This document shows, piece by piece, positions 7,107-56,481 of a stretch of 64,000 nt of DNA; the first letter of the stretch is position 1, and the number at the start of each line of letters is the position of its first letter. The notes under the pieces were generated by a model that ran no database searches, was not told the DNA's origin, and saw only the letters and a program-made list of their open reading frames with translations. The position numbers and the translations under genes were made by a program. The stretch comes from Eledone cirrhosa (Eukaryota): contig OZ024742.1 in assembly GCA_964016885.1 (NCBI GenBank), positions 121,892,001-121,956,000 of the forward strand, read 5' to 3'.

Positions 7107-7300
7107 AACGAAGGAAATGTGGTAATGAACCAAGTGGACCATAACGCACCAAAGTACTCAATACTTAGGGTAGTAGAGTGGGTAATAGGAACGAGTAGGA
7201 CCCCGACGGCTGAGCTCAAGCCGTTTCGACGGCTAATTTTAGTCCATAATCAGCCGTCGAAACGGCTTGAGCTCAGCCGTCGGCGTCCTACTCGTTCCTA
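7107..7300 (-). mobile_element. Palindromic mini-element, family B (3' half of the HHR only)
   Basis: About 135-nt arm followed by a fold-back arm ending CTCGTTCCTA; in (TA)n. Confidence 0.8.
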
Positions 7301-7532
7301 TATATAGATATATATATTTATATATATATATATATATGTAGGTATATATATATATATATATATATATATATATATATATATATAGATTTTGAGTTTATGT
7401 TGGTTGTATACCAACACCTCAGTATGCAGGCTGGAGCACTCGACGAAGTGCGCAGGTTGGTTTGGTTACTCCGGAGTAGTGTAAAATAAAGTTAAATAAA
7501 AGTCAAATGATTAAAATTTAGCTTCGTTTATT

Positions 7533-7587
7533 ACTGCTATATATATTTCAGTGACAGCCAGCTTTGGCTGTGACCTCTTCAGGCAGT
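7533..7587 (-). ncRNA. Minimal type I hammerhead (family C), sense copy in the PLE1 3' repeat
   Basis: ACTGC-CTGAAGA-GGTCACAGCCA-aagc-TGGCTGTCACT-GAAA-T-ATAT-A-TA|GCAGT; intact core and palindromic stem III tetraloop. Confidence 0.85.
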
Positions 7588-8804
7588 TTGAATTAGTATG
7601 GTATAGACAAGTACATATGTTGTTTAGGTGTATGATATTGTCAATACTCTGATATGCCCAGTTCCTTGTTGGGTTGTTAATTCACTGGGAAACTGGAGTC
7701 ATATGAATTCAAACAAACGAATTTTCGTGTCACAGGTCCCCTTCTCCTCTCATTGGTCAGTTATTAGAACATTCTTCATTCTAAGTGTTGTTATTGTTGG
7801 AGTTAGCTTAAAAATTGATAAAATGGTAGAAGGGACTAGGTGTTGAAGGAACAAAATATCAAAAAATGTGTCAAACTTCCCATTGTTCAGTTCTGAGAGC
7901 ATTCCTCAGTCAGAAGTCTATAGAATTCTTTCTGGGGTGAGTCTCCCTGTAGTGTTTTTGCCTGCTATTGTTCAGTACATTTGACCTCCACCATTATTTT
8001 GGTACTGTTGTTGTTGTAGTGGTCAGCTTATATCTTGCTGCTGCTAACAATTTAGAAGTATCCAGTTTGTTTGTGTTTTCTCTTCCTCCCACCCGCCACC
8101 ATCGTAGTGGTGGTGGTGGTGGTGGTGGTGGGGGGGGGGGGGTTCTTTCATGTATATGTAGAAATATAAGGCAATAAATGAAGAAAACAGAAAATAAATA
8201 AATAATATAATAAAATAAAATAATAAATAATTTGTGTAATTTGAAAATAAATAAATAAATAGAGAATAAAGAATAAAGAGTAAATGAGAGATTGGTGAAA
8301 AAGTAATGATTATGTATATGGAGAGGTGAGAAATAATGTAGGATAAAGTGTGTGTGTGTGTGCTATAACCAATCTCAAGGTCAGAATATGTTGGATAGAT
8401 TGGTATGATACAAGATGTTAAGATGAGATATTCAATGTGTTTGTGTTATAATCTATCTCAACTTAAAATAAATATAAGGTGATACAGTGAAGAGGGCAGA
8501 AAACAAATAACAAATTAATAAAGAGAAATCAAGATTTAAGATTGGAACTTTAAAGTCAGAAATCTGGTAAATTAAAAGTGTTTGTGTTATAGATGTTGGC
8601 CAGATTATTATGGCTGTGTCCGATTCTATCTCTAGGCTATCATGGTGTCTGCTCCGCCTGGGTTGTTCCCTATGGCTTGAGGGGAGTTCACAACCTAGGG
8701 TGTTGTAATTGCCCATATAGCTTGAGGGAGGTCTGGCCGAGAGGTGTTTTCATGTTCTGTAGAAGTCCCTATAGCTTGAGGGGAGTTCACATCTTCTTGT
8801 GTTG

Positions 8805-52728: not shown

Positions 52729-54260
52729 TATTTACATGTAGCCTGCTTGAAAGATAATTCTGGTCATTATGGACATTTTACAATGTCAGTGACGGGACTA
52801 GTTATGGAGATTTTACAATGTTAGTGATGGGATTATTATCACTGAATGTCAATCTTATACATTTTGTATCTTGCCTATATTAGCACAATATTTTATATAA
52901 TTTCTTATGTATAAGGAATTACATTTTGAATGCTGAGTGGCTTTGTTATCTGAAATATTACACAAAATATTGTTTGTTTGTCTGTTGTAAGGTAAACGGT
53001 CCTATAGTTCATGAAAGGGGGAAATAGGTGTTGTCATGTTCTAACCCTTCATTTAAGTATAGATTGAGTGAATTGGTTTCAAAATAAATCATGATAACAG
53101 TTGATCAGATGTTTACTGCTTCATGAAACGCCATTGTTTTGATGAGGCGATATATCTCGCCTATATTCATTCCTCATTTGGAGCATGAATTATTAACTTA
53201 AACAAGGTGAATTGTTCTACAATTTATTCTGAAACTGCATTGAAATTTCACTCACCGAATAAACTTACTTCCGGCTGATAGGAGTACGACCTTGCTGAAT
53301 AAAGTGTTCAGAAATATGTTAGAAAACAAGATATTTGAAATATTGAATTGCAGAACTGTAATAGAGAAGAAAAGAATGTCAACTTGTCAACATTGTATTC
53401 TTGTGAAAGCCTTTTCTTTTTCCGCATTTGCTTTCGAAAACTAGAAATTAAGTGAACAGTTACATGGTGAAAAGAAATTTTCTTCAAACTCAAAACAGAA
53501 GTAAAAAAATAAATAGAAACTAAAACAGAACCAAACAAAAGACGAAAAACGTATTCTAAAACAAAAAAAATTAATAGAATTACGGTTTTTCTTCTTTTCT
53601 TCCCAACATATTCTTCACAGTGAGTCTGTTATTTGCAAAAAAGAAAATCTTGCTTCATGTAGCTGTTAGTTTTCCTTTATTATTGATATCGGACATCTCA
53701 ACAGTAATCCGCTGTCAGTTTGGTTAAGTATTGGCAAATGTATAAAAAAAGAAATCTCATACAGAAAGAAACAGAGAGAGAGAGAGAGAGAGAGAGAGAG
53801 AGAGAGAGAGAGAGAGAGAGAGAGAGAGAGAGAGAGAGTTAAGGGAAAATGAGAATGAGAAAAATTTCGAGAAAGATAGTGGAGGAATGGAGGTGCAGAG
53901 AGAGAAAGAAAGACACGTACAAAACGTTCAAATATACAAAGAAATATTTATAGTCACACAGAAATATATACACAAGCCAATATTCACCGACTGATACTAT
54001 CTGGTTAAAAACGAAACAGAACCAAATAAAACGTGAAGCAGTACATATATAACGGAAGTGAGGAATATTGTACATATATATATATGTGCACTGAGTGTTA
54101 GAGAATGCTTGAGTATGGTGGTGTTAGTGTGTACTTGTGTGTGTGTGTGTGTAGGGTCTAATGAACACCGAAGGGGAACATTATAAAGTTTATTTCAAAG
54201 AGGATTTCATCAATGGAAAACAATACAAGAGGAGAAATAATATATATATATATATATATG

Positions 54261-54771
54261 TAAAGTTATATTTAAAATTGTTGGGTTACAACTAGTAAAT
54301 ATTTATAACTGATATAAAAGCACTCGACAAATATTTGGAGTATATTTACAATATTAAATAAATGGAAAACTATATTTATAAAACCATATTTATTTCATTA
54401 TATATATTTCGGGGATATCATATTAACAATATGCTATGCCTTCATCAGACAAAATACAATATAAACAGTTTTATAGATAAATATATTCGACATACCGTAA
54501 TAAACATCAACTTCATTTGAAGAGGTTTACGCTAGCAATGACTGCTAGCAGTGACTGCTAGCAGTGACTGCTAGCAGTGACTGCTAGCGTAAACCTCTTC
54601 AAATGAAGTTGATGTTTATTACGGTATGTCGAATATATTTATCTATAAAACTGTTTATATTGTATTTTGTCTGATGAAGGCATAGCATATTGTTAATATG
54701 ATATCCCCGAAATATATATAATGAAATAAATATGGTTTTATAAATATAGTTTTCCATTTATTTAATATTGT
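54261..54771 (-). mobile_element. Palindromic non-coding PLE-type element (family N)
   Basis: About 190-bp arms 54348-54536 / 54583-54772; spacer made of four 13-mers; the left arm extends about 85 nt; TA flanks. Confidence 0.88.
54663..54728 (+). ncRNA. Type I hammerhead (family N); mirror copy at 54391-54456 on the minus strand
   Basis: TATTTTGT-CTGATGA-AGGCATAGCATATT-gtt-AATATGATATCCCC-GAAA-T-ATAT-A-TA|ATGAAATA. Confidence 0.85.
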
Positions 54772-56260
54772 ATATATATATATATATATATATATATATA
54801 TATGTATGTATATATATATATGTATATATAAGTATACATATATATATGCATATATATATACATATATATATACACATATATATAAACATACATATATATA
54901 TATACATATATGTATACATATATATATAAACATACATATATATATACATATATGTATACATATATATATAAACATACATACATATATATATATATATATG
55001 TGTGTGTGTGTATATATATATATATTTTTTATATGTATATATATATATATCATATATATATATATGTATATATATATATATATCATATATATCATATATA
55101 TATCATATATATATATATCACATATATATATATATCATATATATATATATATATATGATAAATATGATATATATATATTATATATATGATATATATATAT
55201 GACATATATCATATATATATATATATATATCATATATATATGATATATATATCATATATATATATATATATATCATATATATATCATATATATATATATA
55301 TCATATATATATCATATATATATATATATCATATATATATCATATGTATATATATATATATATCATATATATATATATATATATATATCATATATATATA
55401 TCATATATATATATATATATCATATATCATATATATATATATATCATATATATATATCATATATATCTATATCATATATATATATCATATATATATATAT
55501 ATCATATATATATATATAGATATATATATCATATATATATATATATCATATATATATATATAGATATATATATCATATATATATATATATCATATATATA
55601 ATATATATATATATATCATATATATATATATATCATATATATAATATATATATATATATCATATATATAATATATATATATATATATATATATATATATA
55701 ATATATATATATATATAATATATATATATATGTATATTAAGAATATTTTCGAGATATATGTATATGTAAATATATATATATGTAAATATACGTATATATA
55801 TGTATATATAAATATACATATATATATATATATATATATATATATAACTATACATATATATATATATATATATATATATATATAACTATACATATATATA
55901 TATATATATATATATATAACTATACATATATATATATATAAATATACATATATATATATATATATATATATAAATATACATATATATATATATAAATATA
56001 CATATATATATATATATATATATATAAATATACATATATATATATATATATAAATATACATATATATATATATATATAAATATACATATATATATATATA
56101 TATATAAATATACATATATATATATATAAATATACATATATATATATATATAAATATACATATATAAATATACATATATATACATATATATATATATAAA
56201 TATACATATATATATATATATATAAATATACATATATATATATATATATACACATATATA
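54772..56260. repeat. (TA)n-derived minisatellite blocks with TATCA-, TAACTATACA- and TAAATATACA-punctuated units
   Basis: Direct reading. Confidence 0.9.
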
Positions 56261-56481
56261 TAGGAGAAAGTATGACCCCGGCGGCAGAGCTCAAGCCGTT
56301 TCGACGGCTATTTCTGGACTCTTTCTGGACTATTTCTGGACTAGTCCAGAAATAGCCGTTGAAACGGCTTGAGCTCTGCCGTCGGGGTCATACATTCTCC
56401 TATTACCCACTCAACTACCCTAAGTATTGAGTACTCTGGTGTGTTATGGTCCATCTGGCTCCTTACCACAACTCCTCCGTT
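56261..56481 (+). mobile_element. Palindromic mini-element, family B (half HHR), opposite orientation
   Basis: Fold-back at CTGGACT-AGTCCAG preceded by two extra TTTCTGGACT copies. Confidence 0.85.

Follow-up and report, generated by a model that had tools for sequence, protein, structure and literature searches.

How do very short, two-armed insertions of a retroelement arise, and why do their arms break off at nearly the same place inside a ribozyme? The question is raised by a 64,000-nt stretch of contig OZ024742.1 of Eledone cirrhosa (the window), in which BLAST of the window finds five copies of one such element: four minimal copies, here called minis, and one longer copy. The minis are very short insertions of a Penelope-like element (PLE) with Hydra-clade motifs, the clade being assigned from those motifs, and they are real, occurring in great abundance as a variant of an insertion structure already known. 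Their outer ends are fixed at two positions, 1 and 81, in (TA)n, their inner ends are piled at 134–147, their junctions vary, and they have an autonomous parent. On this basis we favour the reading that each mini is probably a pair of separately primed cDNAs that ran off a transcript start inside the hammerhead ribozyme and were then end-joined.

The minis and their parent element

Element positions run along the cDNA strand and start at the tail end, with window position 23957 as 1, 24037 as 81 and 24097 as 141. Each mini has an 80-nt tail continuing into an arm from 81 to an inner end x, which meets an inverted arm from y to 81 head to head; the two arms are 55–63 nt long, the tail is single and TA repeats lie on both sides. 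The inner ends x/y are 134/144 in the mini at 7105–7301 (forward strand, variant T3, in (TA)n; tail arm 1–134 at 7105–7238, tail-less arm 144–81 at 7238–7301), 141/143 in that at 23957–24162 (forward, T3; tail arm 1–141 at 23957–24097, two inserted bases, tail-less arm 143–81 at 24100–24162) and 141/141 in that at 28160–28362 (forward, T3; tail arm 1–141 at 28160–28300, one inserted C, tail-less arm 141–81 at 28302–28362). They are 142/141 in the A-type mini at 56260–56483 on the minus strand (tail-less arm 81–141 at 56260–56320, a reiterated junction of about 21 nt, tail arm 142–1 at 56342–56483). All four copies are real and differ in their junction sequences, as the initial annotation had proposed. 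It had described them as 200-bp palindromes, of which only 115–145 bp per copy is palindromic, and its common turning point does not hold for the first mini, with arms stopping at 134 and 144.

In the mini at 23957, the tail (positions 1–80) occupies 23957–24036 on the forward strand; in tandem copies this tail runs on into the 5′ untranslated region (UTR) and open reading frame (ORF). At 24037–24097 the minus (RNA) strand holds a type I hammerhead's 3′ half: an initiator-like A (141), the strand forming the 3′ side of stem II, GAAA, stem III, the GUC cleavage site at 101/100, the GGGG of stem I and the second start at 81. Each arm carries that 3′ side of stem II and, as previously noted, GAAA, stem III, GUC and GGGG, and has no UUGANAA strand; the 5′ strands of stems I and II are also absent, leaving the minis with an incomplete catalytic core. 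The longer, 5′-truncated A-type insertion (2246–2683, forward) has a tail arm of 1–383 (2246–2628) and a tail-less arm of 136–81 (2628–2683), and contains a complete type I hammerhead with a U3–A8 core (UUGACAA...GAAA...GUC) at 2328–2446 on the minus strand, with the initiator-like A at 2387 and the fold taken from a sister copy (L004). Its inverted arm does start near the place where the minis turn, at 136, as had been suggested; it is not a fold-back, because the partner arm reaches 383. The variants, formerly put at two, number at least eight.

Longer copies link the minis to an autonomous parent with a unit length of about 3.1 kb. Two of them (L061 and L062) pass through the 3′ UTR into an ORF that encodes a reverse transcriptase (RT) as well as a GIY-YIG domain at the C terminus, and in a third (L008), also with RT and C-terminal GIY-YIG and with the same ends as the minis, the tail continues into the 5′ UTR and the start of the ORF. 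The translations of these three copies give a single RT plus GIY-YIG ORF joined to the mini ends, and partial tandems of the pseudo-long terminal repeat (pLTR), an inverted 5′-truncated copy and a tail on one side are all present, as in endonuclease-containing (EN+) PLEs. For 5 proteins a Pfam scan gave 0 families, and the domains are called from motifs. Homologues number 392, many of about 700 aa. The parent protein carries the Hydra-clade motifs LRWRTY (RWR, not RWK), SDKTG, CNCPDRSSC, CNLC and CKH, and its GIY-YIG core has one Cys and no CCHH (compared with section 11 of PMC8557442). Insertion into (TA)n and a hammerhead within the pLTR are further Hydra-clade traits.

Two other classifications were rejected. 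Non-LTR retrozymes are tandem non-coding units, each with a complete hammerhead (definition from bioRxiv 10.64898/2026.07.22.740005), whereas the minis are inverted two-arm units with half ribozymes. Miniature inverted-repeat transposable elements (MITEs) have a constant inner sequence and symmetric terminal repeats, whereas the minis have 61 junctions in 81 copies, a one-sided tail and a retro-parent. No main variant consists of minis only; each also has long copies.

Inner ends across the genome

Exact patterns were counted in the 3.0 Gb genome, where reversed controls gave 0. The core 31-mer matches 33,782 times. TA followed by the tail start (position 1) occurs 29,397 times and TA followed by the position-81 start 28,597 times, nearly equal numbers, and 29,422 arms reach 141 (summed patterns). 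The 5′ half of the ribozyme occurs 4,944 times and the A-type junction between tail and UTR 45 times.

The distribution of inner ends was read from two samples, one of tail starts and one of 81 starts, each made up of the first 100 on the list and picked with inner ends ignored. Of the arms at risk, that is, reaching 134, 115/132 end at 134–147 (49/57 tail arms and 66/75 tail-less arms), with modes at 140–141; three further copies left out of this count would add 3/3. The stop hazard is 0.063 per nt at 134–147, compared with 0.004–0.014 before it and 0 at 148–161. Contig depth across 134–147 falls 15- and 18-fold in two public runs, whose contigs also show loose TA ends at 81 and 1 as well as jumps and non-palindromic joints that leave 139–142; these contigs may derive from the assembled sample and carry no information on transcript ends. 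A small surplus of tail-arm ends at 97–103 (7 against about 2 expected) could reflect cDNAs that ran off the RNA at the cleavage site, or else microhomology, the sequence there being a GC-rich repeat.

Arms that have no inverted partner and are joined straight to TA show the same preference, with about 26 of about 45 separate places ending at 140–141 (a by-eye reading of the first 100 matches to a pattern allowing 135–147). Among bystander arms of the divergent D and E variants, which were not selected by their ends and were likewise read by eye, 11 of about 18 short arms stop at 140–141; none of these arms passes 141, and their stem II differs. The turning points are therefore not scattered but form a genome-wide hotspot, as anticipated from the window. 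The earlier placement of the stop in stem II was not upheld, the hotspot lying beyond the conserved part of that stem.

Long A, T1 and T2 copies fold into a three-way type I hammerhead with an unpaired core and three helices, which suggests that long copies hold a complete ribozyme, predicted to be self-cleaving. In a T3 copy and two old D copies the minimum-energy structure is not hammerhead-like and the sequence folds otherwise, and the folding z score of the whole region is about −0.8. All four bases occur at hammerhead position 7 of the core; the U3–A8 core variant is known from PLEs (PMC4209133). An Rfam scan of the window (139 rows) contained no hammerhead row, only miRNA-like hairpin and simple-repeat matches below the gathering score. 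In some subfamilies the stop site itself is part of a weak distal helix; in another it is unpaired, as read from a real long copy. Position 81 sits 2–3 nt beyond the point at which stem I ends in the complete ribozyme.

Origin of the two arms

The initial annotation had attributed the minis to snap-back priming at the stem II hairpin. In its fuller form, following Arkhipova et al. 2013, this proposal has the cDNA stall at that hairpin and snap back to prime the second arm, the endonuclease then setting the tail-less end and deletions making the arms unequal. It accounts for the fact that both arms carry the same variant in 103/107 sampled elements (21% expected at random), as had been noticed in the window, and for recurrent hairpin-like junctions, one of which is common to 18/30 A-type G-class loci. 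Self-priming has been proposed for junction palindromes of this kind (PMC3846280). Snap-back is indeed present as patches of 5–12 nt and reiterations at many junctions, even in solo arms (L327 and L331). Such patch-type junctions are the pattern of synthesis-dependent microhomology-mediated end joining (SD-MMEJ) repair (PMC5728401), and the patches would supply homology to a partner cDNA.

The arms themselves argue against a second arm primed whole from the first. Tail-less arms often hold sequence that the tail arm lacks: of the 17 tail arms that have a tail-less partner and measure less than 125 nt, the partner ends at 134–147 in 11, six of them sharing no sequence with the tail arm. In long pairs either arm may be the longer (417/818, 425/1049, 500/174 and 2920/594), and the window's own long copy is 383/136. 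Tail-less arms also occur alone: among 100 sampled, 80 have a tail arm as their partner, 11 stand without one and 9 are long, and among 97 sampled tail arms 63 are joined to a tail-less arm, 24 are alone, 2 are joined to another tail arm and 8 are long. Solo tail-less, tail–tail and 81–81 forms are all present, and 4/107 pairs are discordant in variant. Partnerless arms stop at the same place as paired ones, the stop does not move when stem II changes, and it is found beyond the strong stems, not where they begin at the base. Snap-back therefore survives as short patches and not as the source of a whole arm; whole-arm snap-back at stem II is disfavoured, and we give self-priming little credence as the route to the minis.

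The same data bear on the amplification of one or a few palindromic masters in the manner of a MITE. A few junctions do recur (7, 5, 4 and 4 copies among 81 minis), as this would require. However, 61 distinct junctions were found among these 81 minis, a set that includes loci selected by their junction; the same junctions recur across subfamilies, and the minis have their ends in common with an autonomous retro-parent and with forms that are not palindromic. This junction diversity shows that the minis arose repeatedly and not in one event with identical junctions, as had been suspected from the window; master amplification is largely refuted and we consider it very improbable.

That two primed cDNAs were joined end to end is very likely. 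The RT–endonuclease would cut both strands of a TA repeat and prime at positions 1 and 81; on an RNA that starts at the A of TYAGTY (position 141), run-off would yield cDNAs of 141 and 61 nt. Host end joining would then trim the cDNAs and join them head to head, often after a snap-back or loop-out patch of 5–12 nt. In vitro, one Penelope protein cuts both strands, extends them from a pair of internal starts on either side of the tail, and accepts 5′-truncated RNA (PMC11167929).

Nature of the stop and known systems

Base 141 is the A of TTAGTC in variants A, T2 and T3, of TCAGTM in T1 and of TTAGTT in the divergent D variant; the motif stays across five variants while the loop and stem sequence around it diverges. 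The site matches TYAGTY with the A as +1 (chance about 0.001 per position), T1 copies with TCAGTA deviating at the last base, and a downstream element, CSARCSSA, is matched only with two mismatches. TYAGTY is a strong initiator in Drosophila (PMC6483594), and Penelope of D. virilis has an initiator (Inr)-type internal promoter in its pLTR (PMC2377424). We regard an RNA 5′ end as the likely cause of the stop and a capped initiator start at the stop as probable. Runs of A on the cDNA strand directly after 141–144 in six copies (L049, L064, L145, L153, L234 and L303) suggest slippage on a U run at the template end. Two other sources of the breakpoint were tried and rejected. A 3′ splice site (YAG at 142–140) is not followed by a constant exon or leader, and deletion between the repeats of stem II would retain the whole loop, which the minis do not.

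Longer copies point to more than one class of template. Arms with a full hammerhead lie in head-to-head pairs in 50/100 listed cases (25 pairs), compared with about 11% if arms escaped the stop independently, and 2 further pairs are tail-to-tail; long arms pair with long arms. In the set of copies with a tail–UTR junction (43 distinct copies; 44 of 45 places fetched), 6/8 at-risk copies that extend less than 300 nt past the tail stop at 135–148, compared with 0/15 of those that span at least 1.3 kb. Eleven copies jump from the pLTR into the UTR or ORF, seven from 138–142, three from exactly 100, the predicted cleavage site, and one from 175. These data are most simply read as a linear RNA that starts near 141 together with a distinct class of RNA that is long or circular; Cervera and de la Peña have proposed circular RNA (PMC4209133). 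Long and more-than-unit copies would come from this second class, consisting of read-through, multimeric or circular RNA. The linear transcript would hold only the substrate half of the ribozyme at its 5′ end and a complete ribozyme at its 3′ end. In nine copies (L340, L351, L357, L359, L428 and L433–L436), the landing or priming points of jumps cluster 84–109 nt past the tail, around the AUG, which suggests a third start region.

A protein could set the stop instead, as it does the template boundary of telomerase. Two primed cDNAs would still be made, with the element's protein imposing a boundary near stem II or its loop on the priming-proximal copy only. This would explain the free second passage through 141 (0/15) without a second RNA class; position 81 lies at the base of stem I in the complete fold, and the ribozyme of PAc is protein-assisted (PMC11167929). 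Yet both arms share escape, half of the listed full-hammerhead arms being in long–long pairs (50/100), the stop tracks the A of TYAGTY and not the fold across subfamilies, and jumps leave the stop just as they leave the cleavage site. We judge a protein boundary unlikely. Alternatively, the RNA 5′ end near 141 may be real and stem from a nuclease cut, by a host endonuclease or small-RNA slicing, rather than from initiation. A cut agrees with the jumps, with a template class common to both arms and with the weakness of the cap signal, and leaves unexplained the match with an initiator motif that is kept in five variants amid a diverging loop. At a minor end, 145 followed by C (230 in total), T-type copies make up 82/100, compared with 52/100 at 141, in agreement with a second motif, TCA-TT, in those subfamilies; this enrichment also speaks against a cut, although the partner's C can account for part of it. 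A nuclease origin seems to us quite unlikely.

Several observations weigh against run-off at an initiator start as the source of the paired cDNAs. The transcript start at 141 is inferred from insertion ends, and the inner ends spread across 14 nt. The hotspot sample, like most samples overall, comes from the first 23 Mb of one contig (C1). The extra base after 141, a possible cap signature, is C in 5,696 cases, T in 949 and G in 1,818 (G in A-type alone), and in the unbiased sample G in 12, C in 9 and T in 3; many extra bases can come from the partner or from snap-back, and we do not use this mixed result as support. Among the loci ending at 145, 4/30 are mutated long copies, and the C of the partner itself explains at least six. 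Full-length copies never begin at 141 (0/15), which forces the assumption of a second template class, and position 81 lies next to stem I of the complete fold, a structure that could not form in a transcript with its start at 141. Concordance of the arms in 103/107 pairs is also compatible with one arm having been copied from the other. Finally, the evidence from arm asymmetry for independent priming is strong and not final, because part of the asymmetry could have been made by later deletions of palindromes.

Other insertions in the window have related shapes. A second Penelope-like family at 25006–27922 forms a 300-bp perfect palindrome whose arms hold an intact CUGAUGA core, beside a GIY-YIG ORF (25782–26645) and a 465-bp inverted repeat, and its turn lies upstream of the ribozyme core. 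A 476-bp palindrome of another family (43756–44231) has a reiterated junction; with TCAGTT about 10 nt from its centre, it may be another example of an initiator close to the turn. Further insertions that are flanked by TA, palindromic or two-armed, and patch-like at the centre occur at 54240–54869, where a 13-mer is tandemly reiterated at the centre, 36712–37343 and 40707–40908. Two more Penelope-like copies with RT and GIY-YIG, at 8805–11432 and 15645–20936 (minus strand), have DKT or CxCx5C-type motifs, the latter with inverted arms of 1.85 kb at 95%. Broken Penelope-like ORFs of other apparent clades lie at 45208–47134 and 30189–31830. Between 290-bp inverted repeats at 2860–5846 is a broken pol fragment, which we take from its RT, RNase H and integrase motifs to be of Ty3/gypsy type.

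The origin of inverted pLTRs and tails in PLEs and the role of their hammerheads are stated as open questions (PMC8557442 and PMC4209133). The inverted copy and one-sided tail of PLEs are already known. In the open literature covered (including an excerpt of PMC13282606), there is no report of a fixed stop inside the ribozyme or of a strong-stop origin of solo pLTRs; subscription papers, Repbase and supplements (S1 and S2 of PMC8557442, which may list this family) lie outside that scope. Here, tens of thousands of independent insertions record where reverse transcription starts and stops at base resolution. They favour two-ended priming over self-priming and point to RNA 5′ ends at 141 and 100 and to two template classes, and their unusually sharp breakpoints are a testable handle on Penelope-like replication. 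Were the minis to retain promoter activity, the genome would gain from them about 30,000 start sites that face outward. A broader and doubtful synthesis is that the promoter may fire inside the element's own ribozyme, giving an mRNA that starts with half a ribozyme, which could not cut itself, and ends with a whole one, which could; strong-stop cDNAs primed internally near the cap might be integrated in pairs, tens of thousands of times over, ribozyme-cut and circularised RNA might yield full-length tandems, and the minis might be back-to-back promoters that may seed minis in turn.

In LTR retroelements, priming near the RNA 5′ end yields strong-stop DNA, a fixed run-off cDNA that is able to jump, and in twin priming of L1 two primers produce an inversion. 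In the reading favoured here the minis differ from both: two primers supplied by the target DNA copy stretches of RNA that overlap, and the run-off cDNAs themselves become integrated. Their closest counterparts are the Hydra-clade EN+ PLEs (Craig et al. 2021, PMC8557442), with which the element shares a single ORF, RWK-like, DKT, CxCx5C, CxxC and CxH motifs, a C-terminal GIY-YIG domain, a pLTR hammerhead, (TA)n targets, partial tandems, an inverted 5′-truncated copy and a tail at one end. It differs in its tail of 80 nt, compared with 30–40 nt there, and has a unit of about 3.1 kb; about nine-tenths of its arms stop at one ribozyme site and minis dominate, whereas the excerpt of that paper describes no such hotspot. 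Poseidon PAc, an element of Anolis studied in vitro (Frangieh et al. 2024, PMC11167929), similarly has two internal RT starts that bracket the tail, cuts and extends both strands and uses AT-rich targets; it belongs to another clade, its starts lie in the ORF rather than upstream of the AUG, and the excerpted text reports no fixed 5′ stop. Penelope elements of Adineta (Arkhipova et al. 2013, PMC3846280) share head-to-head pLTRs, a tail on one side and an Inr-like motif in the pLTR, but whereas self-priming on an antisense template was proposed for them, the copies described here favour two primed cDNAs and end joining.

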